This document shows, piece by piece, positions 402 to 50,095 of a DNA stretch of 64,000 nucleotides. The notes beneath the pieces are model-generated. The model was not told the DNA's origin. It was given only the letters and a program-made list of their open reading frames with translations, and did not search any database. Every line of letters begins with the position of its first letter. Position 1 is the stretch's first letter. The DNA comes from Thermoanaerobaculia bacterium (lineage in GTDB: Bacteria > Acidobacteriota > Thermoanaerobaculia > Multivoradales > Multivoraceae), in contig OY761158.1 in NCBI GenBank assembly GCA_963664405.1, forward strand, positions 544,001 to 608,000. Reading direction: 5' to 3'. Both the position numbers and the translations under genes were made by a program.

Positions 402-3217
402 TTGAGCTCCACAGAACAGGTCCGCTGGGCTGACAAGATCGACCAGCTCATTGCACTCTCGGACGATGAGGAGCGCGAAGCGTTCTTTGCGAAGCATCCT
501 GAAGTCTGTTGTTCGGAAGTGGCGCGACAGCTGGGTCGCAGAACCACGAAACTGGCACACATGGACATCCCCGCGGCAAGCCGTGCGGGTGAGACGCTTA
601 GACAGCTTGGAGGTCTTTCTCAGGAGGAGCTCTATCTGAGGGCTACAGCCAGCGCACGCTGGCGGCTATCAGTCAGCTCCAGGGCGTCGACTATAACGTC
701 CAGCTCAAACACCTAAGAGCGGCGATCAAGCACTTCGAGTCGGCCTCGAGAGAGGATGAGGTCGCGATCACTTGCTCCAACGGACTCATGGCGCTTGCGA
801 TCCTAGGGGAGCACGATCTCCTGAAGGCTTGGGAGCAGCGAGCCAGACGCTATTTTGAATCGCACTCAGATCGGCTCCGCCTAGGCCGACTCGAGCTAAA
901 TGTTGGCAACCTGGCAGGCTGGCAATGTAAATGGCAGAAGGCAGTAGACGCCTACCGCAAGGCGCACCGTCTAATGCTTCTCGCGGGCGCAGAGCAAAGT
1001 GACGAACTAGCCGCACTCGCCAACCTCTCTTTCTGCCTCCTGAAGCTTGGCGATCTGTCCGCGGCGACGTCACTGATCGAGAAGACTCTTACTATCGGCC
1101 AGGAAAATGGCTGGGACCTTGATGTCGCTACGGCAGAAGCACAGCTAGCGCGACTCAGGTACCTTCAGGGCGACTTCAGATCAGCCCTCGACCTCGCAAG
1201 AACGGCAAGAACACGCTATCGGCGACACGGTTCACTCCACAGCGAAGCCCAAGTATCCGTAGCGGAAGCGGACATTCTCCTCGCGATCTGCGCACCTGAA
1301 CAGAGCGAAGCGCTGGCGCATCGGGCTCTAAGGGATTTTGAGCAGATCGGCGTTCCACTTGAGATAGGTAACGCCCTTTTGAGACTCGGGCATTGTGCGA
1401 ATTGTAAGATGAGACACCGCCTCGCACTCCGCCTCTTTCGACGCGCGAAGAAGCTCTTCAAAGAATCTCACAGCACAGCGAAGTCACTGCTGGCTAGCTA
1501 CTACATCGCTGCAACACTTAACGATCTCGGTCGCTACTCGCATAGCCGGCGGGAGGCAGAACGGGTCCTCAGGACGCCCGATTCGCGTTCGGGAACCTTT
1601 CTTCCCGTTCAGTGCCGCCTTCTACTTGGAAAACTGGCGCTAGAGCGGGGAGACGTCGAGGATTGCATCGACAACGTCGACTTGGCGCTGCGTAACATTA
1701 ACTATCTCGACTCGGCGATGATGGAAGCCGAAGCCTTCCTCGTGCTAGGTGCGGCGAGAGAGCAAGCAGGCCTGCCCGAACAGGCATATCACTCATATCA
1801 GCGATCGGAACGCAGCCTCGAGGGCGCCCGAAGGTTTCTCTCGACCGGTGAACTAGCGATCTCCTTCCTAGGCGACAAGTTGGAGGTATACGAAGCTCTT
1901 TTTGACCTCGCCCGCAAGCAAGGCAACCTCAAGGAGGCGATCTATTTCGCAGAGAAAGCTAAATCGCGAACTTTGTCGGACCTGATGCGAGAAGAGGTCC
2001 AGGATGGGAGCGGCGGTAACCGGAACCGGGATCTGAGCCCTTCGCCACTGAACAGTAGGCTGAGAGGCTACGAGAAGAGGATTCGGGAGCTCGAGTTCTC
2101 GGACGAACGCGACGTACTCGGGCAAATTGCGAGGCTGCGGGAACTCGCGAGTGACCTAACCGGGACTGCAAGCGGAGACGTGCCGAGGAAAGCAGAGAGA
2201 TTATTTGGTAGGTCGTCGCCAACTGACCAGAAACGGCCGGAGAACGTCCGAGAGTGCCTGGGGAGCGGAGAAACCCTCCTCGAATATTTCTTCTCACGAG
2301 GAACCGTATTCGCAATCGTTGTCAGTCGAGAGAACCTACAAATCGTACCCGTATCGTCAGTCTCCCGCGCTGAGAAGGTCCACCGCCTCCTCATGGCGAC
2401 TCTCTCCAGGCGTGAGGCGGAGTCGCATCTCGACAGCAGCACGCACTACCTCCAGCAACTCTACGAGCTACTCTTGGCCCCAGTCCGGCCTCTCCTCGAG
2501 GGTCCGAATGTTGTCGTCGTTCCCCATGACTTTCTCCACCAGTTACCCTTCCACTCCCTGTTAGACGGCAGTTCGTACCTCGTCGACCAATTCAGCTTTA
2601 GCTACGCGCCAAGTGCAGAAAGCCTTCGATTAGCGCGCCTGAGACCTCCCAGTAAGAACGAGGGGATTGCGGTTTTCGGACGTTCAGATGCCACCGCTCC
2701 CAATATCGCTGACGAAGTCCGTTCCCTAAACGAGCTTCTTCCCAACTGTCGCGTCTTCCTCGATGGGGATGCGACACTAGAGCGACTGCAAGAGTCGTGT
2801 CGCGAGGCCCGGTGGATTCACGTCGCAGCGCATGGACTCTTTCGAGAGGCGGATCCGGCGGCCTCTTCGATGAAATTGGACGGTTTTCTACTTTCGCCCA
2901 ACAGACTGCGCAACCTCGAACTGCAAGCCGACCTAGTTGTCCTGAGCGGCTGCAGCACAGGCCGGGGAGTGATTCGAGGCGCGGATGAGATACTCGGCCT
3001 CTCGAGGAGCCTCCTCGAAGCGGGAGTTAGATCCACAGTTGTCAGCCTGTGGGACGTTGACGACGCGGTCACAGCGGCGCTGATGCCCTCGTTCTATCGA
3101 GCTCTCCAACAAGGAGAGTCCTACAGCGATGCGCTTCGAAAGGCAATGCTAGATATTAGGCAGGTCGCACCTCATGTGTCCTTGTGGGCACCGTTCGCTC
3201 TCATGGGAGCCGGCTGA
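402..3217 (+). CDS. TPR-CHAT (caspase HetF-associated) protease 1, catalytic dyad intact, apparent 1-bp frameshift near 637
   Basis: ORF 788..3217 has TPR repeats and CHAT motifs (AEKAKSRTL, VVPHDFLHQLPF, HVAAHG, LVVLSGCSTG, SLWDVDD, WAPF). Its frame extends upstream to ~602 (EGYSQRTLAAISQLQG...) and matches CHAT2. ORF 402..716 matches the CHAT2 N-terminus. Confidence 0.85.
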
Positions 3218-3323: not shown

Positions 3324-6176
3324 GTGTCTTCAACGTCCAGCGCACCGGAGCTTGTCGCTCCTCTTGTCGAGAGCCTCCAGCGTCTTCCAGAAGGCCAAGT
3401 CGGAGAGTTTTTCCACAACAGAAAAGAGCTCGTCACCCGTTCGACTGTCGAGGATTTGACAAGAGAAGCGACGAGGCTGCTAAGAATTGACCTGGAACTC
3501 TCTCGGCGCCTCTCCGAAGCGTCACTCTGGCTCTCGGAACAACTCGACGACGACTACTCTCGCGCCAAAGCCCATCGAGCAGCCGCCAACCTAGCTCACG
3601 CTCAGGGTCGACACACGGAAGCCCTTGAGCGCTATCGCAGAGCCCGATCCCTCTTTGAACTAATCGGAAACCAAGAAGAGGCCGCGATCACCGCGAGTTC
3701 CTCGCTGCAGGCTCTCACTTACGTCGGCGATCACGAGGCTGCCTTCGCCGAAGCCAAATTCGCGCGAACAACGTTCGAGCGCGTTGGCGATCGCTTGCGG
3801 CTGGCCCGCCTGAACTTCAACTACGCGAACATTCTTCACCACAGAGACCGATGGGCCGAGGCGGCGGGCCATTACGAGGACGCCTATCGCGACTTTCTGG
3901 AAATTGGGGAGAAGGAGGACGTTGCGGTTTGTCTCGGCAACATGGCTGTTTGCCACCAAAAACAGCAGGACTTCGTACAGGCACTCGCCTTCTATGAACG
4001 AACCCGGGAGTTCTGCGAAGAGAACGGGCTGACTGTCCTAGTGGCCGACATCGACTACAACATCGCTTACCTCTACTACCTGCGTGGCGAATACACTAGG
4101 GCACTCGAGCTCTATAGGGAGGCGAGGGTCAAGCACCGAGAGCTAGGTGACCGACACCATGAGGATCTGTGTGCTCTCGACGAAGCAGAGATCTACCTTG
4201 AGCTGAACCTGACAGTCGAGAGCGCGGATCTCGCGGGCTCAGCGTTCGATGGTTTTCAGCAAAGGGGCCTTGTTCATGAAAGCGCGAGAGCACTGACGAA
4301 TCTTGCCTTGGCGGAAGGTCGCCAAGGTAAGTCTTTTCTCGCCCTAGAATTGCTGGGCCAGGCAAGAGATCTCTATTCACAAAACGAGAACCATGTTTCG
4401 GCGGCGCTTGTTGACCTGTACAAGGCCGGTGTGCTCTATCGAGCGGGACGTCCTTTCGAAGCGAGAAGCTTCGCGAGTCAAGCAGGATGCGGTTTCGGAG
4501 AAGCCGGCCTCGCCACCAAGCAAGCCGCGTGTGAGCTTCTGTTGACACGGATCTCTCTCGATGACGGCGACCTAACTGCCGCCGCAAAACACAGCCAGTC
4601 GGTACTAGAGAAACTCTCGCTGGTCGATGCACCCAGCCTCTCTCATCTTGCGTATCTGCTGCTGGGAGAGATCGAGGAGCGCCTTGGCAATGCCGTCGGC
4701 GCCAAGGAAGCTCTGACTCAGTCACACGAACAGCTCGAGAGAATCAGAGGTCCGATGCAGACCGAGGAACAGAAGGTCGGATTCCTCGACGACCAGCTCG
4801 TCGTCTACGAGAGTCTGGTCAGCGTGATCCTCCAAGGGGACGACTCTTCAGAAGAAAAGGAAGAGGCCTTTGCCTGGGCAGAGAAGGCAAAGTCCAGAAG
4901 CCTTGCAAATCTCCTCGCGTTTCGAGCTCATCTCCTGCCCGCTACCTCGCCCGGGCGCAGCAAGCTGGCAGACCAGGTCAGACAGCTCCGCGAAGAGCTC
5001 AACTGGTACTACCGGCAGATCAATCTCCAAGAAATGCGGAGCGACGCTCCCTCAACCGAAGGCGTCGAAGCTCTGCGTGCCTACAGCAGGCAGCAGGAAG
5101 GTCGCCTCATCCGCACCCTTTCGCAGTTCCAACAGGACGATCAGGAGTTTCGTTCGCTGCAGGAGGGTCTCACCACCGACCTCGAAACGATCAGGCGCGA
5201 CCTGTCATGGGGTACAACGCTGCTCGAGTACTACGTCGCTCGAGGAACGGTATACGCACTGATCGTCGATCACCGCACGATCGAGATCGTCCCGCTCACA
5301 CTCGAGAAGACGGTACGTGGGCTCAGCGGGCTACTGCGCTCCGCGCTCTCGCGGCGCCGCGATACGAGCGACCTGCGACATCGTAAGGAGTCCGCCGCAT
5401 TCGAGTATCTTGCGGCCCTGTACGAAGAGCTCGTGGCGCCAGTGCACGACCTCCTGCGGGGTCCATCTCTAGTGGTGATTCCACACAGTCTACTCTTCTA
5501 TCTTCCCTTCCACGCATTCCCCACCGGCTCCGGCTACCTCGCCGACGAATTCACGGTGTCGTACGCGCCAAGCGCAACAGTTTTTCATCTATCCAAGATC
5601 AAAGACCCGAGCGACGACGCTACTGGTACCGTGTTTTTCTGCCCCGATGACACGCGAACCGACCTTCTCGAGCTGGCGGCAGCTATCAAGAGACTCGAGC
5701 CCGATACTGAGCTGATACCTGGGCAGCAAGCGACCGGAGAGGCACTCCAAGCCAGGGCGAGCAAAGCTCGCTTCATCTATCTGTCGGCGCAGGGCCATTA
5801 TCGAGAAGACAATCCAATGTTCTCGTCTCTCGAAATGGGAGGCGGATCGATCCACCTTTTCGATCTCTTTCAGCTTCATCTGCGAGCCGACGTAGTGTCA
5901 CTGCTTGGCTGCGGACCAGGGCTGAACACACAAGGCAAGGGTGACGAAGTGGTGGGCCTGGTCCGCGGCCTCCTGTACGCGGGAGCTCGCTCCGTAGTGA
6001 CGACCGTTTGGGACGTCGAGGATTCCACCGCCGCCGAGTTCTCTTCCGCCTTCCACCGACACCTCCAGAACGGAGAGAGCAAGGCACTCGCGACCAGTCT
6101 CGCCATCACCGAGCTCAGGAGCAGGCACCCCGACCCCTACCACTGGGCTGGATTCGCGCTCTACGGTGAGGCCTAG
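3324..6176 (+). CDS. TPR-CHAT protein 2, probable pseudo-protease (catalytic His replaced by Gln)
   Basis: TPR repeats plus a CHAT domain (AEKAKSRSL, IPHSLLFYLPF, IYLSAQGH, LLGCGPG, WDVED, HWAGFALYG). GTG at 3324 chosen as the likely start; the ORF is open from 3174. Confidence 0.85.
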   Translation: MSSTSSAPELVAPLVESLQRLPEGQVGEFFHNRKELVTRSTVEDLTREATRLLRIDLELSRRLSEASLWLSEQLDDDYSRAKAHRAAANLAHAQGRHTEALERYRRARSLFELIGNQEEAAITASSSLQALTYVGDHEAAFAEAKFARTTFERVGDRLRLARLNFNYANILHHRDRWAEAAGHYEDAYRDFLEIGEKEDVAVCLGNMAVCHQKQQDFVQALAFYERTREFCEENGLTVLVADIDYNIAYLYYLRGEYTRALELYREARVKHRELGDRHHEDLCALDEAEIYLELNLTVESADLAGSAFDGFQQRGLVHESARALTNLALAEGRQGKSFLALELLGQARDLYSQNENHVSAALVDLYKAGVLYRAGRPFEARSFASQAGCGFGEAGLATKQAACELLLTRISLDDGDLTAAAKHSQSVLEKLSLVDAPSLSHLAYLLLGEIEERLGNAVGAKEALTQSHEQLERIRGPMQTEEQKVGFLDDQLVVYESLVSVILQGDDSSEEKEEAFAWAEKAKSRSLANLLAFRAHLLPATSPGRSKLADQVRQLREELNWYYRQINLQEMRSDAPSTEGVEALRAYSRQQEGRLIRTLSQFQQDDQEFRSLQEGLTTDLETIRRDLSWGTTLLEYYVARGTVYALIVDHRTIEIVPLTLEKTVRGLSGLLRSALSRRRDTSDLRHRKESAAFEYLAALYEELVAPVHDLLRGPSLVVIPHSLLFYLPFHAFPTGSGYLADEFTVSYAPSATVFHLSKIKDPSDDATGTVFFCPDDTRTDLLELAAAIKRLEPDTELIPGQQATGEALQARASKARFIYLSAQGHYREDNPMFSSLEMGGGSIHLFDLFQLHLRADVVSLLGCGPGLNTQGKGDEVVGLVRGLLYAGARSVVTTVWDVEDSTAAEFSSAFHRHLQNGESKALATSLAITELRSRHPDPYHWAGFALYGEA

Positions 6177-6264: not shown

Positions 6265-6987
6265 ATGACTCTAGAGCTCTCGGCACCCGGCTCCTTAGTT
6301 ACCCGAGCGAGGGAGAAGAACCCTCGTCTCGCTCACCTCCAGCGAAGAAGGCTGGAGGAGGAGCTGAAGTCGGTAAAGACGGGGATCATGTGCGCGCTCA
6401 ATATGCTGCTGGATCTCAAAAATCTGCGCACTGGATTGCACGCGACACGCCTCGCCGAATGGGCGGTCCTCGCAGCCGAGAACCTAGGAGTGGATGAGAG
6501 TGAGCTCCGAGATATCGAGGCCGCATCTCTTTTACACGACATCGGCAAGATCGGTCTCCCGGATTCCATTCTGCTGAAGCCGGGAAAGCTCTCCGATGAA
6601 GAGTTCGCGATCACCAAGAAGCATCCCGAGTACGGCTGGGCAATCCTGAGATCGATTCCCGGACTCGAGAAAGCCAGCCTCTTGGTGCTGCATCATCACG
6701 AACGTTTCGACGGTAGGGGCTACCCCTCGGGCCTAGCGGGAGAGAACATCCCTCTCGGGTCTCGCATCGTGGCCGTCGTCGATGCCTTCGACGCCATGAT
6801 CTCGAGCCGCGCCTACCGAGACGCCCTGCCCCTCGAAGAGGTGCTTCGCCGCCTCGACGCCGACACCGGCAGTCAGTTCGACCCCAAGATCACGCCCTTC
6901 TTCATCGAGCTGTCGAAGGAGCATCTGCCCGAGCTGATGAAGCGCGACGAAGACGTCCCCGCCGGCCTGGCCCGGGTTCTGCCTTAG
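6265..6987 (+). CDS. HD-GYP domain protein (cyclic-dinucleotide phosphodiesterase family)
   Basis: HATRLA, LLHDIGKIG, HHHERFDGRGYP, RIVAVVDAFDAM, QFDP motifs. Confidence 0.92.
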   Translation: MTLELSAPGSLVTRAREKNPRLAHLQRRRLEEELKSVKTGIMCALNMLLDLKNLRTGLHATRLAEWAVLAAENLGVDESELRDIEAASLLHDIGKIGLPDSILLKPGKLSDEEFAITKKHPEYGWAILRSIPGLEKASLLVLHHHERFDGRGYPSGLAGENIPLGSRIVAVVDAFDAMISSRAYRDALPLEEVLRRLDADTGSQFDPKITPFFIELSKEHLPELMKRDEDVPAGLARVLP

Positions 6988-7188
6988 TCTCGGCTCTCCA
7001 CTGGCCCATACACATCTTTGCATTGGCTCAAGCGACTGGGCTACAATTACTGGTTAGCCTTTAGGGGTCAAGCGGATTTTCCGCACAAAGACCCTTTGAA
7101 ACACCTTCTCCCGCGTTACGGCGGGGGTAGGAAATCAGTACTGCGCTTTGGCGCAGTAGCTGCGCATTGTATTAATAACAAAGGAGTT

Positions 7189-7284
7189 ATGCATGTATCA
7201 GCCACACACGAAGACCGGTCATTCCGTCAGTCCAATCCTGGAGTAAGTGCTCCGATAGCGATTCTTATAGGAGACACGACATGA
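7189..7284 (+). CDS. possible 31-aa small ORF at the head of the peptide array (MHVSATHEDRSFRQSNPGVSAPIAILIGDTT)
   Basis: AAAGGAG lies just upstream but with unusually short spacing. Its stop overlaps the next ATG (ATGA). It lacks the shared leader and core motifs. Confidence 0.3.
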   Translation: MHVSATHEDRSFRQSNPGVSAPIAILIGDTT

Positions 7285-7448
7285 AGATCAAAACGGACCT
7301 CCGAGGCGGCTATTCGTCGCCCAAAGCCGATTCAGAACGGCCAAGCAACAACCCGCAGGAATACTGCATTCAACGCCCATCGTCGCTTCTTTGGCCCCCC
7401 TCCGCTATCACGCAGACGGGTAACTGCGTCGCGGCGATTCTCGAATAG
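7281..7448 (+). CDS. peptide precursor, long type 1 (55 aa) MKIKTDLRGG-YSSPKADSERPSNNPQEYCIQRPSSLLWPPSAITQTG-NCVAAILE
   Basis: RBS AGGAG, ATG 7281, TAG 7446-7448; double-Gly-type leader; C-terminus shared with neighbouring ORFs. Confidence 0.8.
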   Translation: MKIKTDLRGGYSSPKADSERPSNNPQEYCIQRPSSLLWPPSAITQTGNCVAAILE

Positions 7449-7479
7449 AAACCCAACCTAAACCTAGATCGGAGAAGAG

Positions 7480-7533
7480 ATGAAAAACCTAGTCCTAAAG
7501 ACAGGCAACACCGTAGCAGCCATCTTGGAATAG
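7480..7533 (+). CDS. peptide precursor, short type B (17 aa) MKNLVLKTG-NTVAAILE
   Basis: RBS GGAG, ATG 7480, TAG 7531-7533; same VAAILE C-terminus as the long types. Confidence 0.75.
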   Translation: MKNLVLKTGNTVAAILE

Positions 7534-7574
7534 TGGCTCCACAATACCGAACGCGAATTTTTCGAGGAGATCCG

Positions 7575-7631
7575 ATGAACGTCAAGACCAACGTCAAAGC
7601 TGGTTCCCATCTCAACCACATCATGGAATAG
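7575..7631 (+). CDS. peptide precursor A copy 1 (18 aa) MNVKTNVKAG-SHLNHIME
   Basis: RBS GAGGAG; three synonymous differences from the other copies. Confidence 0.85.
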   Translation: MNVKTNVKAGSHLNHIME

Positions 7632-7666
7632 CCCTAGCTAACTCAACAGATATTTGGAGAAATCAA

Positions 7667-7723
7667 ATGAACATCAAAACCAACGTCAAGGCCGGTTCCC
7701 ATCTCAACCACATCATGGAATAG
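7667..7723 (+). CDS. peptide precursor A copy 2 (18 aa) MNIKTNVKAG-SHLNHIME
   Basis: RBS GGAG; conservative V-to-I change in the leader. Confidence 0.85.
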   Translation: MNIKTNVKAGSHLNHIME

Positions 7724-7759
7724 CCCTTAGCTAACTCAACAGATATTTGGAGAAATCAA

Positions 7760-7816
7760 ATGAACGTCAAAACCAACGTCAAGGCCGGTTCCCATCTCAA
7801 CCACATCATGGAATAG
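7760..7816 (+). CDS. peptide precursor A copy 3 (18 aa) MNVKTNVKAG-SHLNHIME
   Basis: RBS GGAG, ATG...TAG in a 93-bp repeat unit. Confidence 0.85.
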   Translation: MNVKTNVKAGSHLNHIME

Positions 7817-7852
7817 CCCTTAGCTAACTCAACAGATATTTGGAGAAATCAA

Positions 7853-7909
7853 ATGAACGTCAAAACCAACGTCAAGGCCGGTTCCCATCTCAACCACATC
7901 ATGGAATAG
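7853..7909 (+). CDS. peptide precursor A copy 4 (18 aa) MNVKTNVKAG-SHLNHIME
   Basis: RBS GGAG, ATG...TAG in a repeat unit. Confidence 0.85.
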   Translation: MNVKTNVKAGSHLNHIME

Positions 7910-7944
7910 CCCTAGCTAACTCAACAGATATTTGGAGAAATCAA

Positions 7945-8001
7945 ATGAACGTCAAAACCAACGTCAAGGCCGGTTCCCATCTCAACCACATCATGGAGTA
8001 G
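7945..8001 (+). CDS. peptide precursor A copy 5 (18 aa) MNVKTNVKAG-SHLNHIME
   Basis: RBS GGAG; final Glu codon is GAG instead of GAA (synonymous). Confidence 0.85.
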   Translation: MNVKTNVKAGSHLNHIME

Positions 8002-8008
8002 CGCAGTC

Positions 8009-8179
8009 ATGAAAATCAGAACAGACATCAAAGCAGGCTATTCAGCAACCAAGATGGAATCCCTCCCCAACCTGGAGCTGCCGCGACTCACACTCGACGA
8101 CTTCCCCAGCGTGAAGGAAGAGACTCTCAGCAGGCCCTTCTTCAAGACCGGCCAAGCAGTCGCTGCGATCCTCGAGTAG
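8009..8179 (+). CDS. peptide precursor, long type 2 (56 aa) MKIRTDIKAG-YSATKMESLPNLELPRLTLDDFPSVKEETLSRPFFKTG-QAVAAILE
   Basis: ATG 8009, TAG 8177-8179; leader and C-terminus homologous to 7281..7448. Confidence 0.8.
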   Translation: MKIRTDIKAGYSATKMESLPNLELPRLTLDDFPSVKEETLSRPFFKTGQAVAAILE

Positions 8180-8223
8180 GTTTCTTTGAAGGGGGAGCCG
8201 CAGTGCTCCAACCCGACAAGGAA

Positions 8224-8256
8224 GGGACTCGAACTTCTTCTTGAAGAGAGTGTCCC
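8224..8256. terminator. possible hairpin between the convergent peptide array and ABC gene
   Basis: gggac...gtccc outer arms with an inner cttc/gaag stem; no clear U-tract. Confidence 0.25.
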
Positions 8257-10373
8257 TACGAGTGCGCGATCGCGACGACGCTGGGAACCCGCTCTAACAC
8301 GAGCTTCGAAGCTCTCAGAGCGTTACCACTATCCAGCGGCTCGAAACTCTCATCGAGAATCGTAAGACCTTCGTTCTGAAGAAGCGTTCGCGCCAGAAAG
8401 ACCCGGTTTCGCTCACCATGAGAGAGCTGCCAACCGGTGTCACCCACCATCTGAAAAATCCCTGCAGGCATTCGCTCGATTAGCTCGCCAAGACCGAGCT
8501 CGCGACACACCTGTTCCGCCTCAGCAATGTCTGAAGGCAACGCCGGCCATCGGCGGCCCATCAAGAGATTGAAGGCGAGGCTCTCGCTGAGGATGTGGTT
8601 CTCGTGGAATTGAGGAGCCAAGACGACCTGGCGGCGCCAACGCTTCACGCCGGTACTGTGCTGATCGAGCCCCCCAAGCAATAGAAGGCCCGAGTCCGGG
8701 CGACGCAAGCCTGCCAGGAGCGCAGCCAGGGTGGACTTGCCTCCGCCCGAAGGCCCCTGCAACAAAATACGGTCTCCCTCTCTGACTTCCACGTCACAAG
8801 AGTGGAGTACCGCCTCTGGCCGACCCGGGTAGGAGAAGCTCAGATCTCGGGCCTCCAAGAGCTTCCCATCCGCCGGTCTGTCACCCACCACGACACCTGG
8901 CGCACTCGGTAGCTGGGGTCGCGCGGCGGCGGCGAAGATCTCTCGAACGCTCCGCCACGCCACGACGGCGCCGAAGAGCTGCGCCATGCCCGCTGCGATC
9001 GACAGCAAGGCCCTGTAGGTGAGCAACACTCCACCAAGACCTATGGCAACCCGTACTAGAGTGACCTCGCCCGCCACCATGCTGGGGGCGAGCCCAAGAA
9101 CGCCTATCACCAGCCAACCGCGAGGTACGAGCGCGCCGAGCGCGGCGGTAACCCGATCGAGACCCACCGAGTGGCGAAGGTAGGCCTCGAGCTCCTGATC
9201 CTCCTGATCATGCCAGTGCGCCCTTCCCTCCTGGGCGAGGCGAGTCCGATACCCAAGCATGTTCTCGACCAATTGATGAGTAAGCTCGAGACGCGCCGAA
9301 GTCCACTGCTCTCGACAGCGAAAGTAAAACCAGCCGAGGCCGGCGGTCACTCCCAGCCACAACAGGAGCAACAGAACATGGAGAGCGCCGCCCGCGCCCT
9401 CGGCCAAAACGAAGGACGCCATCAGCACTTCGATGCTGCCAAAGAACAGCAGGAATCCCCCGCCGAGCGCAAGCGACTCCAGCGCCTCCGACTCCAAGAC
9501 CTTGCCGAGCAGCTCACCAGCTCCCTGATGGCGAATCTCCTCGGGCTCGAGCCGCATCGCGCCAGCAAGCAGTCTCTGCTTGAGGGCTCCCCCCGCTCGA
9601 ACGGAGATCTCGCCCTGCAGCCAGGTACTCCACATCCGCAGCGGCACCAGACTAAAGAGAATGAGCACCCAAGCGGTCAGCCAGCCACGGTCGATATGCC
9701 CCTGTAAGGCAGCACGTCCCACGATCCACCAAGACAGCATGTACATGGCGTATTGGGCAGCATGGGCAACGCCAAGGGCCACAGAGCGCCCGACAACACC
9801 CATACGCGAGAGTCGGCGGCGAAACGAAGAGCCAGCTGGGGCGCGCAGCATCCATATACTGCCTAAACGCTGCGAGGCCAGACGCTGCCGCAAGATCTCT
9901 TTCCTTGCCCGCTCCTCGTCTTTCGCCGCCACCCCCGCACTGCGAAGGAACGCCCTGACTTCACCGTCGAGAGGATCCTCGAGGCGCGCGCAGATCCAGC
10001 CCGCCACAGTTTCCGCCGGCACTCGCTCGATCGCGAGGTCGGGGCTCAGCAACAAGGCTCTGCCACGGCGTGAGCCAAGCAGGGCCAGGAAGCGAAACTC
10101 CTGATCGACTCGCAGCCGCAGAACAGCCGGACCGCCTCGCCGAAGGAAGAGCTCGACCTCGGGGTAAGTTACTTGTGTAGCCTCGGCGTCGACACCGAGC
10201 CACTCACAAGCGGTCTCGGTCCACAACGCTACTTCCGCCGCGTCGTCAGGGTTGAAAGAAGCGGGAGGGTCCTCGACCTTCTGGCGCGAGAGCCCAGATC
10301 GAAAGGTCATCTCGCGAAGAAGCTCTCCGAGCCTTGCCGCCGGCCACGTCGCCTCCCAGGGGCCGACGATCAC
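8256..10373 (-). CDS. ABC exporter subunit 2 (TM + NBD, N-terminal C39-like domain without catalytic Cys)
   Basis: Walker A GPSGGGKST, LSHGERNR, LTILDES. The GTG start at 10373 overlaps (GTGA) the reconstructed stop of the upstream PCAT gene. Confidence 0.88.
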   Translation of the reverse strand: MIVGPWEATWPAARLGELLREMTFRSGLSRQKVEDPPASFNPDDAAEVALWTETACEWLGVDAEATQVTYPEVELFLRRGGPAVLRLRVDQEFRFLALLGSRRGRALLLSPDLAIERVPAETVAGWICARLEDPLDGEVRAFLRSAGVAAKDEERARKEILRQRLASQRLGSIWMLRAPAGSSFRRRLSRMGVVGRSVALGVAHAAQYAMYMLSWWIVGRAALQGHIDRGWLTAWVLILFSLVPLRMWSTWLQGEISVRAGGALKQRLLAGAMRLEPEEIRHQGAGELLGKVLESEALESLALGGGFLLFFGSIEVLMASFVLAEGAGGALHVLLLLLWLGVTAGLGWFYFRCREQWTSARLELTHQLVENMLGYRTRLAQEGRAHWHDQEDQELEAYLRHSVGLDRVTAALGALVPRGWLVIGVLGLAPSMVAGEVTLVRVAIGLGGVLLTYRALLSIAAGMAQLFGAVVAWRSVREIFAAAARPQLPSAPGVVVGDRPADGKLLEARDLSFSYPGRPEAVLHSCDVEVREGDRILLQGPSGGGKSTLAALLAGLRRPDSGLLLLGGLDQHSTGVKRWRRQVVLAPQFHENHILSESLAFNLLMGRRWPALPSDIAEAEQVCRELGLGELIERMPAGIFQMVGDTGWQLSHGERNRVFLARTLLQNEGLTILDESFEPLDSGNALRASKLVLERVPSVVAIAHS

Positions 10374-10433
10374 CCCCGGCCCTCCTCCCCCGCGATCTCG
10401 CGCAACCCACCTCGCTCCAACCAAAGCCGGCGC
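10370..10433 (-). pseudogene. detached native 3' end of the peptidase-containing ABC transporter
   Basis: Removing IS21 and one GGCGC copy restores ...SGARWR-RLWLERGGLREIAGEEGRG*, with TGA at 10370-10372. Confidence 0.8.
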
Positions 10434-10461: not shown

Positions 10462-12466
10462 GGGTCGGCGCGGAAATAACTTCACATTATCGCCGGAGCG
10501 TGTGAGGCCGAGGCGCCACAGGGCGGTCGCTGCATTGGAGGTGGTGGTGAGCTGAGCCCAGGCTGTGGGGCAAGCTCTTCCTGCTCGGTTCGCGGTCTCG
10601 GCGAGAGGGTGTAGTTCCACTTTCCTAGGAAGTCGCTCCTGGCCACCGCGAGCTGCAGCATTTCCTTGTCCGATACCCTGACTCCTTTCTGGTATTGGCG
10701 TTGATCACGGCACGGCTCGACGCGCAGTCCGGTGGATGTCGTCGTGTTGCGGACGAGGTTGACGAGGATCTCGAAACTCTCGAGAGGAACTCCGGCCCAG
10801 TTCTTGCTGATCTCGCTGAACATCCTGTGCTCGATGGGATTCCATTTACTGGTGCCAGTTGGATAGTGGGCGACGGTGATGATGAGGCCGCACTTGTCTA
10901 CGAGCTTCTCCTGGAGGTACTTCTTCCAGGCTCGAAGCCGTGCGCCGTTGCTTGCGCCGCTGTCGGCAAGAATGAGGAGACGCTGAGACGCCGGATAGTG
11001 AGATCGACCGTATTTGAGCCACCAGGTCGCGATGCTGTTGACAGCGAACTCCGGCGTGTCCGACGACTGTCCGAGGACGAGAACGCCGAAGTTCCTCTGA
11101 AGATCGTAGATCCCATAGGGGGAGGCGATGGCGAGAGCTTCGGACCGGAAGTCGTGATCCTTGACCCGCTTGGCCTCGCGGCACCATGTCTGTCCCTGGT
11201 TCTTGAACCGACCGATCAGCTCCTTCTTCTTCGTATCGACGCTGATGATCGGGTCGCCAGCGCTTGTGAAATCCTCGCGCAGTCGCTTGATGGCCTTGAA
11301 CTGTGCATCACGATCTGGGGAGTTCCCCGAAGACAGACATTTCCTATTGCTCTTGAGGGAATAGTTCAGGTCTGCGAGCAATCGACGCACCACCGTAGCC
11401 GATACGATGATGTCAAGGCGTTCGGCAAGGCATTGGGCCACCTTTGCAGCGGTCTCGTGCGTCCATCTTTTTGATGACATGGGATCACCAGCTATATCGG
11501 CCTCGAGTATGGAATGGATTCCATCGACTATCTCGGGCGTTTTTTTTCCACTCGTTGGTTGCCACCGCCTGCTCTTCGAACTCTTCCGCGCTCCACGGAG
11601 CCGCCGAAGAGCTCGCGACGTCCTTTTGCGACTGTATGAGGGTCCAGGTCCAGAAGATCGGCGATCTTCCGGTCGCCGCCATGCCCGAGCTTGGTCGCTT
11701 CCAGGCCAGCGAAGAGCCGCCGCTGGCGTTCGTCTAGCAGGCTGAAGAATAAAACGATGGCAGCCCTGAGCTCCTCGGGGAGCACTTCTGGAACGAGGCT
11801 GGCAGCTACATCCTGGAGAGCCTGCCGTTCGTTGCGCATCAGCTTCTGCTGACGACGGCGCCCTGTTTCCGAGCACAAGTATACGAACCTCTTCCCAACT
11901 CTGGATCGTACGATTCTCTTGCGACGAACGAGGTGCAACATCGCGTGCTTGACCTCGACCTGCAGCAGGAGCTCGAGTTCAGAAGCCGTATAGCCGGCAG
12001 CGGACCGGTCCACGGCAGCCACCGCAGTTTCGAGGAGGCTGCCATGCCGACTGAACCTCGCCGAACCGCACGACCACAAACCCAGATCGTCGAAATCGGG
12101 AATCTCGTTCAAGGTATAGAACCGCCCTCGATCCGAGTAGCTGGCCAAATAGCCCAATCGAGACAGCGAACGGTAGACCGTCATGGTGGCTCGGGTTCCC
12201 ATGGCGTCCTTGAGCTCATCCATGGTGGCCATCTGTTCGCTCATCAAGAGCTCGCGCACTGTTGCATCACGATCTTCGGCTCGTACCATTTGGTATAGTT
12301 CCCCTTCCAAAAGAGGTGACAGGGAAAACTATACCAAATGCGGGCAGGGCTATGCTAGCTCTAAACCTTGCAAACAAGGCGCGTACCGGAGGATTATGCG
12401 GTGGCTGAAGAAGGGGGCAGTGGTATGGTCACCCCAGATACTGGAAACTTATTTCCGCGCCGACCC
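10462..12466 (-). mobile_element. ISAzo13-family element (2005 bp), 18-bp IR GGGTCGGCGCGGAAATAA, TSD TTA
   Basis: Perfect IRs; TTA at 10459-10461 and 12467-12469; lengths agree (3390+2005+3=5398). Confidence 0.93.
10482..12310 (-). CDS. ISAzo13-family transposase, two ORFs joined by a -1 frameshift at an A8 run
   Basis: ORF 11528..12310 (LDERQRRLFAG...RRAGGG) and downstream frame (ISVDTKKKELIG, ADSGASNG, SKWNPIEHRMF); T8 on the + strand at 11540-11547. Confidence 0.88.
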
Positions 12467-12807
12467 TTAGTTGGCTGCGAGTCGGTTTTTTGTCCCCGCG
12501 AGGCGTGACTCAGGGTGTGGCGCAGATAGTCGAGGTACCCCTCGGGGGGTGGCGTCGTGGGGAGTTCTCGGAGGATGGGGAGAAAGTAGGCGAGGGATCG
12601 GATGGGCTGGAGCTTTGGTAGGCGCGGATCTCGGCATGCGCGTCGGGCGGAGCCGAGGAGGAGGGCGGCCTGGAGGACGGTGAGAGGCAGGTCTTGGTCG
12701 AAGAGCTGGTCGACGATGACGCGGTCGCCGTGGTGGAAGCGGTGCGGGGTGTCGGGAAGGAGTCGATAGAGGCGGAGGAGCTGGCGCCGATAGTGGCTTC
12801 GGGTCAT
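12394..12807 (-). CDS. IS21 accessory ORF, C-terminus altered by the ISAzo13 insertion
   Basis: Identical to 52361..52717 up to ...SQPTK; ATGA overlap with istB. Confidence 0.55.
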   Translation of the reverse strand: MTRSHYRRQLLRLYRLLPDTPHRFHHGDRVIVDQLFDQDLPLTVLQAALLLGSARRACRDPRLPKLQPIRSLAYFLPILRELPTTPPPEGYLDYLRHTLSHASRGQKTDSQPTKGRRGNKFPVSGVTIPLPPSSATA

Positions 12808-13598
12808 GAGCGTCGTCGTGCTGCGCTCCGCCTTTTGGCGCGGTCCTTGGCCTTTTTTTCAGCAGCCTCCTTGGCCTCCTTGCGGCGATAGGAGTTAGCC
12901 TCGATCTTGACGATCTCGGCGTGGTGGGTGAGTCGATCGACGAGAGTGACGACGCAGGAGGCGTTGGGAAAGACCTCGGCCCATTCGGCGAAGGGCTTGT
13001 TGGTGGTGAGAAGAATGGGCTTGTTGCCGTATCTCCTGGAGACGACCTCGAAGAGGAGATCCGCGTGGCGGTGGTCGTAGGAGAGATAGCCGAGCTCATC
13101 GATTGCCAAAAGCGAGGGTCGGGTGTATTTGGAGAGCCTTCTCTGGAGCGCCGAGGGGGTTTCCTGGACGGCGAGATCGTTGAGCATGTCGGAGGCGGTG
13201 ACGAAGCTGGCGGTGGCCCCTCGTTGCAGCGCCTGGTAGAGGAGGTTCTTGGCAATCATGGTCTTGCCGACACCGTTGGGTCCGAGGAGGATGACGTTGG
13301 TGATGTCGTCGAGGAATTGGAGGGTGAGCAGATCCTGGATCTGCTCGCGGTCGATGCGCTGGGGCCAGGAGAAGTCGAAGTCGGCGATGCTCTTGAAGAG
13401 CCCGACGCGGCTGGTGCGGATGCGCCGTTCGAGGCTGCGCCGTTTGCGCTCGGCCTCTTCTTTGCGCAGCAGCTGTTCGAGCCAGGGCTGTTCTCGGTAG
13501 GTGCCCCAGTCGTCGACGAGGGCGTAGAAGCCGAGGGATCGGGCGAGCTCTCGTAGTGGTTCGTCAGGGATCGTTGGACTCTTCCTGGGTCGGGCCAT
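12804..13598 (-). CDS. istB: IS21 helper ATPase IstB
   Basis: FDFS, GPNGVGKT, LLAIDELGY, LTTN, DRLTHH, SYR. Confidence 0.95.
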   Translation of the reverse strand: MARPRKSPTIPDEPLRELARSLGFYALVDDWGTYREQPWLEQLLRKEEAERKRRSLERRIRTSRVGLFKSIADFDFSWPQRIDREQIQDLLTLQFLDDITNVILLGPNGVGKTMIAKNLLYQALQRGATASFVTASDMLNDLAVQETPSALQRRLSKYTRPSLLAIDELGYLSYDHRHADLLFEVVSRRYGNKPILLTTNKPFAEWAEVFPNASCVVTLVDRLTHHAEIVKIEANSYRRKEAKEAAEKKAKDRAKRRSAARRRS

Positions 13599-15072
13599 CG
13601 TCGTTGCCTCCAAGTTGGTCGTAGTCCTCGAGGTTGTGCGGTCTCACGGAGAGATCTCGCTGTTGGAGCTCCTGGCTGAGCGGCACCGGTAAAGCCGGGG
13701 GCTGACCGAGGCCGCGCTGGTGCCGTTCGAGTAGGAGCCGGACGGACTGGAATCGCGGTGCGTGGTTCAGGAGCGCTTCGCGCACGGCTTTGTCGAGTCG
13801 CTGGGGGCCGTACTGGCGCAGGAGTCGGAGCAGGCCGGCGGTCTGCGTTCCGAGGTTCTCGCCTCGCTCGGCGAGCTGCTGCATCAGCTCTTCGCATCGA
13901 GGCACAGCGGAAAACAGCCGATGGAAGCCCCGGTGTCGTCGGGCCCTGCGTTTGTGAGCGAGGAGCTCCTCGAGGTGTTGAGGATCGAGGATCTGCTCGC
14001 CCCGGGAGTACGAGCGAGGGTGCTCGGCGAGGAGCTCCTGGCCATCGAGGATCCGCACCCGATGCTCGCTGGCGAGGAGCGTGACGGTCCTCTGCACATG
14101 ACTGTGCGGCACCGAGTAGTCGTTGAGGTCGAAGCGCACGATCGGCGTCTTTCTGACCTTGATCTCCAGTCGCAGGTCGGTTTCGAAGTCGTCTCCGGGA
14201 AGCTCAAGCAGTCGAGGTCGTTCCTGGGCCAGGGCGCTTTTCACGGTTCGCTGTCGGTCCTGCGGCCAGGGTCTGCGCTGCGACCTCTGGCACCATTCCA
14301 GGACCTGCCGATTCAGACGATCCAAATCGCTCACCGTTCGGGCGCCGAAGAACGAGCTTCGCAGGAAGCGGATTGCGCGCTCGACGCGGCCTTTCTCATT
14401 TCCCCGAGCCACCGCGGCGACGGTGGGAAGGAAGCCGTAGTGGCTGGCGAAATCGAGCAGCACGGGATGGAAGCGCACCGCGGTTCCCTGCCGCTCGATC
14501 ACCGCGGTTCGCAGGTTGTCGTACAGAACGGTCCTGACGACGCCGTCGACGTAGTGGAAGGCCAGCTGGTGAGCGTGCAAGAAGGTTTCGAGACGAGTGT
14601 CGAGGGTGAAGTGCACGAAGACCGTGCGCGAGAACGACAGCACGAAGACGAAGGCATAGAGCCGACGATGTGCCCGGCCGACGCGGAGCCGACCGAAGTG
14701 GCCCCAGTCGACCTGCGCCTGCTCTCCTGGCAGCATGCGCAGCGAGAGAAACGCCTCGCGCTGGGGCTTCGGTCGCATCGAGGCCACCAGGTGGCGAAAC
14801 TGATCCGGGCCTCCTGGATAGCCGCGCTCCACCACCATGGTGTAGAGACGGCTCGCCGGCAGTCGTGGGTAGGTCCCGAGCACCTGCTCGATGAACGGCA
14901 GGTAAGGATCGATCATCCTCCCTCGTCGCTGCTGGGGTAGCACGCCGGACTTCTCCAGCGCCCGGCGCACGGTTGAGGGGTGCAGCTGTAGCTGTCGAGC
15001 GATCGTGCCGACTTTCCACTTCTCGACCAGGAACAGACGACGGATCTCCCCGCGCAGCTGTGCGTCGATCAC
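13564..15072 (-). CDS. istA: IS21 transposase IstA
   Basis: PGEQAQVDWG, LYDN, KGRVER, YSVP; probable GTG start at 15072. Confidence 0.95.
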   Translation of the reverse strand: MIDAQLRGEIRRLFLVEKWKVGTIARQLQLHPSTVRRALEKSGVLPQQRRGRMIDPYLPFIEQVLGTYPRLPASRLYTMVVERGYPGGPDQFRHLVASMRPKPQREAFLSLRMLPGEQAQVDWGHFGRLRVGRAHRRLYAFVFVLSFSRTVFVHFTLDTRLETFLHAHQLAFHYVDGVVRTVLYDNLRTAVIERQGTAVRFHPVLLDFASHYGFLPTVAAVARGNEKGRVERAIRFLRSSFFGARTVSDLDRLNRQVLEWCQRSQRRPWPQDRQRTVKSALAQERPRLLELPGDDFETDLRLEIKVRKTPIVRFDLNDYSVPHSHVQRTVTLLASEHRVRILDGQELLAEHPRSYSRGEQILDPQHLEELLAHKRRARRHRGFHRLFSAVPRCEELMQQLAERGENLGTQTAGLLRLLRQYGPQRLDKAVREALLNHAPRFQSVRLLLERHQRGLGQPPALPVPLSQELQQRDLSVRPHNLEDYDQLGGNDDGPTQEESNDP

Positions 15073-15076
15073 GCCC

Positions 15077-15472
15077 CTATCTCCGTCGGCAACGACGAAA
15101 GCTCGTTCGCACAAACTCTCGGCAGGCCTCTCCACACTGCATGCATCGCGGATTCCTCGGGTCGTAGCGCACTTCGCGCCTCGGAGTCTCGATCCGACAC
15201 AGTGTCCTCCCCGAAGTACCGCCTGGGGTACCCTGATGCGTCACTTTCTCTGCCCGCTCGCGCTGGCGCCGACGGTAGCGGGCCTGACGGGCGGCATGAC
15301 AATGCCGACCTCGGAGGCTTCGCTGGTACCGATGGCCGGCCGCCCGAGTCGATTCCCGACGAGCCACCAGAGCACAAGCCCGGCAGTAACGCTGGCCACG
15401 GTCACAGTGCGAGCACAGCGAGATACGCCGACGGCATCGAGCACAGTCGAAGAGTCGGTAGTCCGGTCGCAT
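15077..15472 (-). CDS. Cys/Arg-rich accessory ORF upstream of istA
   Basis: CARC...CSHCDRGQRYCRAC...CMQC; GGGAGG RBS; present in both IS copies. Confidence 0.6.
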   Translation of the reverse strand: MRPDYRLFDCARCRRRISLCSHCDRGQRYCRACALVARRESTRAAGHRYQRSLRGRHCHAARQARYRRRQRERAEKVTHQGTPGGTSGRTLCRIETPRREVRYDPRNPRCMQCGEACREFVRTSFRRCRRR

Positions 15473-18683: not shown

Positions 18684-19316
18684 ATGACCGACTGGCAACT
18701 CACAGATCTCGTCGACTACCTCCGCGGCGCCAGCCATGCCGAGACCACGGAGGCAATCAAACAGGATCTCGCGGCCGGGAATCGAGAAGCCCGCGCCGAC
18801 CTCGACCTCTTCGGCGAAGTCGCAGCGGTGGTAAGCACCGACTTCTCCGACACCCCCCCCGAATCGGCCCTTCGAGCGGCAAGAGCCGCCTTCACCCTGA
18901 CCTCGCCCTTCAGCACCTCGGCACCTCCATTTCTAGAAACGCAAAAAATAGGGAACTCCGACGCGGCCTCGCAGACCGTCGGTTTGCGCGGACCGGCGAG
19001 AGATCACCAAGACCTGCACTTTCGCGGCGCAGGCTTCGATCTCGAGCTCAGCGTGGACATGCCGACCGAGAGCAGCGACGTCGTGATCGTCGGCCGCCTG
19101 TCGAAAGCGGCCTCGCAGCCGTGGAGCATCGATGAGGTGCCGGCTCTCCTCATCAGCCGCGACGAGCCCCTCGCCTCGACGGTGACCAACCGCTTCGGTG
19201 AGTTCCATGTGCAATGTCACAGCGAAGACAGCGTCGAGCTCCGCATTCTTGTCCCAGATCTTGGCCAGATTCGTATTCCCCTCGAGCTCCCCGAGTCGGG
19301 CGACGCCCCGTCCTGA
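18684..19316 (+). CDS. soluble anti-sigma-like protein (degenerate zf-HC2-type N-terminus, beta-rich C-terminal domain)
   Basis: LVDYLRG...EAIKQDLAAGNREA resembles an anti-sigma domain lacking Zn ligands; no TM segment; directly upstream of the ECF sigma gene. Confidence 0.55.
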   Translation: MTDWQLTDLVDYLRGASHAETTEAIKQDLAAGNREARADLDLFGEVAAVVSTDFSDTPPESALRAARAAFTLTSPFSTSAPPFLETQKIGNSDAASQTVGLRGPARDHQDLHFRGAGFDLELSVDMPTESSDVVIVGRLSKAASQPWSIDEVPALLISRDEPLASTVTNRFGEFHVQCHSEDSVELRILVPDLGQIRIPLELPESGDAPS

Positions 19317-19323
19317 AACACCA

Positions 19324-19899: not shown

Positions 19900-20218
19900 G
19901 CTCGCCCAAGAAGTCCTCCGCCAGGATCGCCGTCGCCGCTTCGAGCTCGGACGCCGGCACCACCACGTGAACGGACCCCAGAGCGCCAAAGGTCACCGGC
20001 TCCTGATGATAGAGCAGAGAGTAGACCTTGGAGCGAACACCGCGACTCCGCAGAAGACCCGCCACCAGCGCAGCATCGTGCTCCGTGCCCTCGGTTCTCA
20101 CCACCTCCCACGCTTCGTCCGCGGGCCGCTCCGGCAGAGTCTCGACCAAATCGACGAGGCAGTCTGGGCAACGATCGATGCCGGATCGGAACTCGCCATC
20201 ACAGACCGGACAGAACAA
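19865..20218 (-). CDS. DUF2007-like small protein with N-terminal CPxC...CPDC
   Basis: MFCPVCDGEFRSGIDRCPDC; AALVAGLLRSRGV; VHVVVP. Confidence 0.7.
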   Translation of the reverse strand: MFCPVCDGEFRSGIDRCPDCLVDLVETLPERPADEAWEVVRTEGTEHDAALVAGLLRSRGVRSKVYSLLYHQEPVTFGALGSVHVVVPASELEAATAILAEDFLGEPTAAPGEPAPP

Positions 20219-50091: not shown

Positions 50092-50095
50092 GGGC

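Follow-up and report, generated by a model that had tools for sequence, protein, structure and literature searches.

Are the minute open reading frames (ORFs) that lie side by side in the genome of a Thermoanaerobaculia bacterium (assembly GCA_963664405.1) genuine genes and, if so, what becomes of their products? The question is raised by a stretch of 64,000 nucleotides from contig OY761158.1 (positions 544,001 to 608,000, forward strand), referred to here as the window; the genome that contains it is designated G000. Between positions 7193 and 8179 of the window, nine short ORFs on the + strand, each with a GGAG-type ribosome-binding site (RBS), form an array in which all nine C-termini consist of Gly plus eight residues closing in I-[LM]-E. 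Comparison with homologues shows these micro-ORFs to be real and under selection at the protein level, and gene neighbourhoods show a conserved linkage between such peptide genes and an ABC exporter with a C39 peptidase domain. We propose, as the reading that we favour with modest confidence, that the array consists of precursor genes for miniature exported peptides, which would be cut by the C39 peptidase, exported as octapeptides and likely used as extracellular signals.

The micro-ORF array

The array opens with a 17-amino-acid (aa) micro-ORF (7193-7246; MYQPHTKTG-HSVSPILE), which is without the canonical leader, ends in TAA and is preceded by AAGGAG 7 nt 5' of its start. It is followed by a long precursor of 55 aa (7281-7448), in which the leader MKIKTDLRGG, a 37-aa spacer and the terminus QTG-NCVAAILE succeed one another and which corresponds to P0124 in the protein collection. 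ORF translation then yields a second 17-aa micro-ORF, MKNLVLKTG-NTVAAILE (7480-7533), five tandem 18-aa precursor genes MN[VI]KTNVKAG-SHLNHIME (7575-8001; copies at 7575-7631, 7667-7723, 7760-7816, 7853-7909 and 7945-8001), all of them equipped with a GGAG RBS of their own and repeated in units of 93 bp, and a long precursor of 56 aa (8009-8179) with the leader MKIRTDIKAG, a spacer and KTG-QAVAAILE. The 93-bp tandem repeat amounts to 4.6 copies at 97% identity, and the five 18-mer copies differ by four synonymous changes and one conservative V/I change. The residue pair ahead of the core is A-G in six of the nine ORFs, G-G in one and T-G in two, with an internal T-G also in both long precursors. 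In the long precursors, the spacer (…ELPxLxLD…) is similar to the acidic helix of classical leaders, and the 18-mers look like the long form minus everything between its two K-x-G motifs.

A first-pass annotation, made from the letters of the window, had listed eight of these ORFs. All eight were recovered with the positions and translations given there, seven of them opening with the 10-aa leader and all eight having a GGAG-type Shine-Dalgarno sequence 6-10 nt upstream and a TAG stop; the count was nevertheless too low, the ORF at 7193-7246 having been overlooked. The TAG stops are not remarkable, because TAG closes 37% of those open frames in the source genome that reach 400 codons or more.

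The sequence signature is concentrated in the array. The string G-x5-I-[LM]-E-stop occurs 12 times in the six-frame translation of the 6,780,313-bp genome, nine of them in this ~1 kb; a leader regular expression combined with an RBS, applied to ORFs of 12-60 aa, gave eight matches genome-wide, seven inside the array; and a 48-nt degenerate pattern matched five times in the window against none in 100 shuffles. Across 13 homologous 18-mers from nine loci, K8, A9, G10, Q11, S12, I16 and E18 are invariant, each of these positions being encoded by two to four synonymous codons and Ser by both TCN and AGC. Because the peptide sequence has been kept through synonymous codon change across homologues, we conclude that the ORFs are translated genes under protein-level selection.

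Three short contigs match 6783-6930 (in the adjacent gene for an HD-GYP domain protein), 7344-7494 and 7698-7820 (both in the array) at 100% identity. Two of the three source runs are metatranscriptomes, and the third is RNA by guess only; since DNA can occur in such libraries, the contigs give no more than a weak hint of transcription of the array. An Rfam scan of 6900-8350 returned no match at E <= 1, and a promoter and terminator scan returned nothing exceeding shuffles. Between the HD-GYP gene and the first micro-ORF, three loci have a box CTCCGG(T/A)TT(T/C)T(C/T)GC(A/T)GGAGGTG, which contains a partial inverted repeat (L036 at ~270-300, L037 at ~550-580 and L069, 5' of the array); a hairpin at 7151-7165 of the window differs from it. 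A further GAACACCT box is common to the window and L069.

Leader and core across the family

How far does this family extend? A word-indexed protein search with the 56-mer found a single relative, the metagenome protein P0002 (79% identical), and a comparison with 41 related genomes gave weak matches only (E >= 0.07), of which one, G006:C12, later proved real. Strict 18-mer DNA patterns, run over 401 genomes of the class, matched G000, G602 (three times) and G722 (once) only, while the reversed control gave none. The 18-mer DNA pattern found five stretches in four records (Candidatus Multivoradales and metagenome-assembled genomes of Acidobacteria) in a set of 185,579 species with one genome apiece, and two true contigs in a metagenome collection. 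L038, a third match in that collection, was set aside as a false positive with 37% G+C and no matching ORF. Every relative found by pattern is an 18-codon ORF of the form M-x-[IVT]-[KNR]-T-x-[VLI]-K-A-G-Q-S-x-x-x-I-[LFV]-E.

The mark of the family, which belongs to the order Ca. Multivoradales (Thermoanaerobaculia, Acidobacteriota), is a basic leader M-x-[VI]-K-[TS]-x-[VIL]-K-A-G. It is 10 residues long in 68 of 84 family rows, about five of which look like false positives, with K/R at about -3, -7 and -9 and hydrophobic residues at -4 and -8 only; almost every member of the wider family has K-A-G. Together with the conservation through synonymous change, this bears out the earlier proposal that a short leader ending in Gly stands on real peptide genes. 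In the concatemers (L071 13738-13941 on the - strand, L098 and L101), which join two to four cores, V-[RK]-[ST]-x-V-K-A-G stands in front of every core, and P0139 contains four leader-core units plus a terminal classical ELSDKDLEQVAGG leader with a different core. The cores of such multi-unit precursors are of the ..[QF][QN]HNE[ST].. type. Since the leader recurs internally before every core, this arrangement argues strongly that K-A-G is a processing site.

In the clade of the window, the rule for the core generalises to G plus eight residues closing in I-x-E. G006, the closest of the array-bearing genomes, has four copies of MKIKTSVKVG-QSIDCIKE together with the cores QSIDCINE and QSSCAITE, and one exception, the 11-residue core QERSRGVPIQE. 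Elsewhere the 18-mer cores read QSIDCIKE, QSVVAILE or QSTAGILE, as against SHLNHIME in the window. A profile of the long precursor, compared with 1.84 billion representatives, gave 18 matches, 13 of them proteins of 48-57 aa; all 13 end in [KRVQ]-T-G plus eight residues of the form ...V-[AS]-[AS]-I-L-E, a test that is not fully independent, as the profile includes this C-terminus. Two classes of core, as the first-pass annotation had distinguished them, are thus found: the VAAILE type of the conserved 48-57-aa long precursor and the faster-changing core of the 18-mers.

The constancy of core length and C-terminus, claimed in the same annotation, holds in the clade of the window and breaks down in the wider family. 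There, 67 short cores have lengths of 6 (16 cores), 7 (4), 8 (34), 9 (8) and 11 residues (5), and E closes 26 of them, D 22, G 10 and some other residue 9. They include GVLVGD, GIMLSD, AFHWIDD, PEIITDPH and ARAQIVIIG (five tandem copies); longer cores of 20-30 residues, including Cys-rich 25-mers, are also found. Homologous arrays with unconstrained cores had been named as what would speak against the proposal, and this applies in part, because cores next to orthologous exporters do vary in length and last residue.

The family appears to have escaped naming. No NCBIfam model matched the precursors of at least 20 aa (the 48-66-aa set) at E <= 1 to 10, and none of the six long-precursor clusters looked up in the protein collection bears a name. 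Literature searches found no description of such precursors in Acidobacteria or Thermoanaerobaculia.

Linkage to a C39 ABC exporter

Orthologues of the C39-peptidase ABC exporter of the window (C39-ABC) were found in 65 of 300 genomes of the order at E <= 1e-100. Of the full-length matches we took the 40 best loci with flanks of up to 8.6 kb in both directions, leaving out G000, G602, one match truncated at the end of its contig and lower-scoring or partial rows. Leader-bearing micro-ORFs preceded by an RBS lie within ~8.6 kb of the exporter in 26 of these 40 loci, which supports the tie to a C39 exporter that had been suggested at first.

The arrangement in individual loci is consistent with this linkage. 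In G602 an 18-mer lies directly 5' of HlyD, followed by C39-ABC and the second ABC subunit (ABC2) on the same strand; L034 likewise has an 18-mer directly 5' of HlyD, in a stretch that covers only HlyD and part of C39-ABC. L037 reproduces the layout of the window minus its insertion sequence (IS) elements, with HD-GYP, three 18-mers, a 50-aa long precursor and convergent ABC2 and C39-ABC genes. The array is situated 3' of ABC2 in L073, L076 and L079, and L094 has, on one strand, genes for a CHAT protein, an 18-mer, HD-GYP, a sigma factor of the extracytoplasmic function (ECF) type, a kinase, HlyD, C39-ABC and ABC2.

Some observations at related loci stand apart from this pattern. In two different genomes, a single 18-mer occurs in an exporter-free context near an AcrB-type RND pump (L029 6737-10058 and L032 87-2378); it lies ~130-200 bp 3' of the RND gene, and some kb onward there is a gene for a molybdopterin dehydrogenase, in L032 on the strand of the 18-mer. 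A 513-aa ORF 5' of the 18-mer in G602 (L028 7878-9419) belongs to no Pfam family, and an ESM Atlas search (best score 0.85) gave no lead. By tblastn it has stretches of 43-50% identity in G836 (L034/L086), where the match is on the same strand and 5' of the 18-mer and HlyD, and in G838 (L084), a locus that showed no family micro-ORF.

The exporter genes of the window

In the window the exporter is encoded on the - strand. The 902-aa C39-ABC (15770-18478; Pfam Peptidase_C39, E 1.6e-20) has Q21, C27, H107 and D123 at positions that match the C39 domains in the PCAT1 and ComA structures, and its protease looks active. It also contains an extra segment of ~190 aa (residues ~140-330), for which no Pfam family was found at E <= 10. 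The second subunit, ABC2 (722 aa, 8256-10424), is convergent with the array and has no recognisable peptidase domain: its N-terminal 262 aa had no Pfam match at E <= 10, and a BLASTP comparison of the N-terminus with the C39 region gave one weak match of 34 residues (E 0.045). The N-terminal ~260 aa may represent a C39-like domain that has degenerated and lost the catalytic Cys, but a likeness over 34 residues is too weak to call. The HlyD-family membrane fusion protein (387 aa, 20384-21547) has one N-terminal transmembrane helix.

Two insertion sequences (10482-15135, - strand) are placed exactly between the ABC2 and C39-ABC genes, comprising an ISAZ013-family transposase gene (10482-11876) and IS21 istB/istA (12804-13613 and 13564-15135), and a 1.9-kb insert (18684-20437) separates C39-ABC from HlyD. 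As HlyD, C39-ABC and ABC2 abut or overlap in related loci, the exporter operon of the window has been split by mobile DNA; despite the inserts, the three ORFs have kept their full length. The final ~65 codons of the ORF at 19772-20437 are repeated at at least eight other sites of the genome with 70-98% identity, a recurrence that probably marks a small repeat element. Within the 1.9-kb insert there is also a sigma-70 r2/r4 gene (19198-19899), for which 47 related loci have no counterpart. At 50033-52364, on the opposite strand, there is a further ORF pair with the sizes of the IS21 pair (523 and 269 aa), and directly 5' of HlyD, on the same strand, a 744-aa fusion (21619-23853, -) combines pyridine-nucleotide disulphide oxidoreductase and AIR-synthase-related (selenophosphate-synthetase-like) domains.

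Proposed processing and export

We propose that the 10-residue basic leader M-x-[VI]-[KR]-T-x-[VIL]-[KR]-[AG]-G is a cut-down export signal of the double-glycine type, which a bare [KQ]-T-G would replace in three of the nine ORFs. The C39 domain of the 902-aa transporter would cleave after the Gly, and C39-ABC, paired with ABC2 as a heterodimer and joined by the HlyD adaptor, would carry the product out. The expected products are unmodified linear octapeptides: SHLNHIME, encoded by five gene copies, NTVAAILE, NCVAAILE, QAVAAILE and HSVSPILE. The long precursors, with a leader site and an internal KTG or QTG site, could release a ~45-mer after one cut and an octapeptide after two. The cut site, the export itself, the lack of modification and the signalling role are inferences.

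Regulatory genes around the arrays

What could such peptides act upon? Clustering of ORFs of at least 100 aa across 44 loci returned only ABC transporters (41 loci), HlyD (27), Ser/Thr kinases (17), CHAT proteins (6), HD-GYP proteins (5) and ECF sigma factors (5, or 11 of 47 loci by tblastn) as recurring clusters. The PF07638-type ECF sigma genes in the flanks of those 11 of 47 loci (23%) have a Ser/Thr kinase match in the same flanks, and the pair is mostly co-oriented and 5' of the peptide genes or HlyD. Five genomes of 4.4-7.4 Mb have 4-13 PF07638-type sigma genes each, so that ~3-4% of 20-kb stretches would be expected to contain one by chance. In G722 the 18-mer directly follows the kinase and sigma genes, and one strong transmembrane helix of the kinase (residues 374-392) lies between the kinase domain and a TPR region of ~450 residues; because the helix separates the two, the TPR domain would be outside the cytoplasm and within reach of an exported peptide. 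The activation of ECF sigma factors by adjacent Ser/Thr kinases is established, and a further ECF group has CHAT proteins in its context (PMC8999054).

The window has a different set of neighbours on its + strand. Two TPR-CHAT genes, paralogues whose products are 33% identical, encode TPR-CHAT protein 1 (809 aa, 788-3217) and TPR-CHAT protein 2 (3324-6176, open frame from 3174; 950 aa in the collection). Only the second of these has orthologues at related arrays, where they are situated 5' of HD-GYP, and its caspase-like His and Cys are conserved without exception among 48 homologues. A stand-alone HD-GYP domain protein (240 aa, 6265-6987) with intact HDIGK and HHHERFDGRGYP motifs is encoded directly 5' of the array in the window, L037, L069 and L070, while in L094 the 18-mer is 5' of HD-GYP. 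Neither TPR-CHAT protein nor the HD-GYP protein has transmembrane segments. A complex prediction for TPR-CHAT 2 (residues 21-690) with the 56-aa precursor reached a median score of 0.31, the mark being 0.32, a value that tells neither for nor against binding. In other members of the family the recurrent TPR protein is the membrane Ser/Thr kinase and not TPR-CHAT. The first-pass annotation had suggested that the two core classes might be agonist and antagonist, or that every TPR protein might have a ligand of its own.

The peptide and exporter unit would accordingly be wired in two ways: in related loci to an ECF sigma factor and a membrane Ser/Thr kinase with an extracytoplasmic TPR domain, and in the clade of the window to a cytoplasmic TPR-CHAT protease and an HD-GYP phosphodiesterase of c-di-GMP. 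We rank signalling first because this wiring, read from gene neighbourhood, matches a secreted signal plus its sensor. A more specific scheme can tentatively be hypothesised, which we hold to be possible and, taken as a whole, rather unlikely: a diderm peptide-pheromone system of the Ca. Multivoradales, in which unmodified peptides of ~6-11 residues from genes of 16-21 codons leave through the C39 exporter and are sensed by the kinase TPR domain to activate the ECF sigma factor, with a branch in the clade of the window that acts through TPR-CHAT and HD-GYP on c-di-GMP, the two core classes being two channels.

Alternative explanations and the weight of the evidence

The peptides may be exported without being signals, serving as antimicrobial or competition peptides, as metal-binding peptides or as precursors of modified natural products whose tailoring enzyme, as a component of this same account, would be encoded elsewhere or reside within the family-less transporter segment; we regard this as unlikely, though it is the strongest of the competing accounts. 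A conserved leader with a hypervariable core is a hallmark of bacteriocin and RiPP (ribosomally synthesised and post-translationally modified peptide) precursor families, and the present family shows that combination. Metal-liganding residues (His, Cys, Asp, Glu) are abundant in many cores, such as SHLNHIME, AFHWIDD, ..QHNE.., ..CGCG.. and QSIDCIKE, and the curated models nearest to the exporter are those of the NHLP bacteriocin export ABC pair, although the scores are far under the cut-offs. This account is weakened by the ORF clustering of the 44 loci, which found no modification enzyme or immunity gene beyond a few loci. Two apparent candidates for tailoring were rejected: the alcohol dehydrogenase (ADH) and GCS2 genes beside the exporter of L037 have an orthologous pair at 6.06 Mb in G000, 5.5 Mb from the array, and the ADH gene between the two micro-ORFs of G602 was discarded, as the G000 pair is unlinked to the array. 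Unmodified linear peptides of 5-8 residues, the length range at issue, are moreover short for membrane-active bacteriocins, and the constancy of the octapeptide core across families, seen in 13 of 13 long precursors too, is more readily explained by a conserved partner than by an arms race.

The action of the peptides may instead be intracellular, as ligands, substrates or inhibitors for TPR-CHAT proteases that are cytoplasmic and co-transcribed with the array; these proteases would recognise the free -I-x-E C-terminus, and the convergent exporter would be no more than a disposal or secondary route. Some TPR domains do clamp free C-termini, as Hop does with EEVD and PEX5 with SKL. The co-directional order of TPR-CHAT, HD-GYP and array in the window and in both G006 loci (L069 and L070), the order CHAT, 18-mer and HD-GYP in L094 and the position of HD-GYP 5' of the array in L037 all suit this account, as do the lack of transmembrane segments in the TPR-CHAT and HD-GYP proteins and the invariant CHAT His and Cys. 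Yet we consider it improbable: TPR-CHAT is present in only six and HD-GYP in only five of the 44 loci, the exporter is present beside almost every member that DNA pattern or synteny revealed, and the I-L-E-type 18-mers of G602, G722, G835 and G836 have neither CHAT nor HD-GYP within their flanks. The ~950-aa TPR-CHAT family has at least 1570 relatives (E <= 1e-20) as against 18 matches to the precursor profile; with a protease family so large and a precursor family so rare, most TPR-CHAT proteases must work without such peptides. Still more remote, to the point of being very hard to maintain, is the notion that there are no peptide genes here, the ORFs being either fortuitous frames within a tandem repeat of non-coding DNA or attenuators that regulate neighbouring genes from upstream. 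It could appeal to the five 18-mers inside the 93-bp repeat and to the single micro-ORF ~85 nt 5' of HlyD in G602 and L034, a possible position for a regulatory leader. Against it stand the conservation of amino acids through synonymous change across genera and families, the RBS of every copy and the empty Rfam scan; furthermore, the array cannot attenuate the exporter in the window and L037, where the two are convergent, or in L073, L076 and L079, where it lies 3' of ABC2.

Several points tell against the preferred reading of the array as genes for exported, C39-cut octapeptide signals. Cleavage, export and a receptor are predictions. The leader, which is basic and 10 residues long, is shorter than classic double-glycine leaders, and it appears shorter than any reported leader of a C39 substrate that we met (13-14 residues); the C39 domain LahT150, according to a passage of PMC6363468, accepts leaders trimmed to their last 13-14 residues. 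The canonical leader is lacking in three of the nine ORFs (the two 17-mers; internal sites of the long precursors). No leader-bearing micro-ORF was found within the flanks of 14 of the 40 exporter loci. The two IS elements between ABC2 and C39-ABC and the 1.9-kb insert before HlyD break up the exporter operon, and export in this genome may be impaired by the split. That the products are unmodified is an assumption, because the family-less segment of ~190 aa in C39-ABC could be a modifying domain. As to the signalling role, the window is without an ECF sigma and kinase pair of the associated type, the best one of the genome being at 5.37 Mb, and the enrichment figures overstate the case, since the related genomes are not independent.

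Implications

Genes of 16-19 codons escape standard annotation, and the present family can be recognised in dozens of genomes by its 10-residue leader and dedicated exporter. If the cut site is as predicted, the leader would be the shortest known for a C39 transporter, with consequences for the minimal recognition code and for leader-removal tools; to our knowledge, no shorter one has been described. If the peptides are true signals, peptide communication between cells, a hallmark of Gram-positive bacteria, would be extended to the Acidobacteriota, in which we know of no peptide-pheromone system, and two orphan architectures, the TPR-coupled Ser/Thr kinase with its ECF sigma factor and the TPR-CHAT protease, would gain ligands. 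The peptides being short and cheaply synthesised, the hypothesis is directly testable.

Comparison with known systems

To which known kind does the array system belong? With the NHLP/Nif11 (NHLM) systems it shares a three-gene exporter of C39-ABC, peptidase-less ABC subunit and HlyD, and TIGR03796 and TIGR03797 are the best-scoring models for the two ABC genes. However, C39-ABC scores 192 bits against a cut-off of 853 (TIGR03796) and ABC2 94.7 against 709 (TIGR03797), and the precursors have no nitrile-hydratase-like or Nif11-like leader; on both grounds, the system is not of this kind. As regards RiPPs, no tailoring enzyme recurs with the precursor among the neighbours of the 44 loci, where only transport and signalling genes do; the family-less transporter segment may yet contain such an activity.

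The RRNPP systems (Phr, PapR, NprX, SHP, XIP) resemble the array in their tiny precursors, in a predicted active C-terminus of 5-8 residues and in the TPR proteins encoded alongside. In RRNPP, the TPR receptor is cytoplasmic, with a helix-turn-helix (HTH) or phosphatase output, and the peptide is re-imported by Opp. The present system differs in belonging to a diderm phylum, the Acidobacteriota, rather than to Firmicutes, in the predicted export by a C39 ABC transporter rather than by Sec or PptAB, and in its TPR partners, which are a membrane Ser/Thr kinase and a CHAT protease instead of HTH regulators or phosphatases; no Opp-type importer was found among the recurrent neighbours of the 44 loci.

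A micro-gene of ~17 codons with an active short C-terminal peptide also recalls PatS. In heterocyst-forming cyanobacteria the PatS motif is RGSGR, the receptor is HetR, and the CHAT-family protease HetF acts in the PatS pathway. HetC, an exporter of the C39-peptidase ABC kind, is linked to the handling of PatS (PMC4133259 and PMC10986499). The two systems have no sequence similarity (RGSGR is present in none of the 84 family rows), and they differ in that the genes are clustered here and that the cyanobacterial receptor is not a TPR protein. By analogy, the array system appears to work like RRNPP and PatS/HetC, and it is a member of neither.

The sigma and kinase pair of the related loci is similar to the ECF43 type (EcfP/PknT, EcfK/PknS), in which a PF07638-type ECF sigma gene adjoins that of a transmembrane Hanks-type kinase and there is no anti-sigma gene; such adjacent pairs are described in PMC8999054 and PMC13147305. 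The present kinase differs by its large extracytoplasmic TPR region; here, moreover, the pair is found inside a peptide and exporter operon, which would supply a defined ligand.

The closest likeness is to the double-glycine leader peptides and their peptidase-containing ABC transporters (PCATs), among them ComA-ComC, PCAT1-CtA, LahT and the class II bacteriocins. A classic double-glycine leader is an amphipathic, often acidic helix of ~15-30 residues with hydrophobic residues at -4, -7, -12 and -15. The leader of the array family departs from this consensus, being 10 residues long, basic and not acidic-amphipathic; the cores are of 6-11 residues, compared with 20-60 in the known systems, and there are tandem identical gene copies, multi-unit concatemers, a ~900-aa transporter with a family-less insert of ~190 aa and a second, peptidase-less ABC subunit. 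What the two have in common is an N-terminal leader that closes in a pair of small residues (A-G, T-G or G-G), an adjacent ABC transporter with an N-terminal C39 domain and catalytic Q, C, H and D and, in a diderm, an adaptor of the HlyD type. Judged by these shared features, the double-glycine leader with its PCAT exporter is the nearest known kind.

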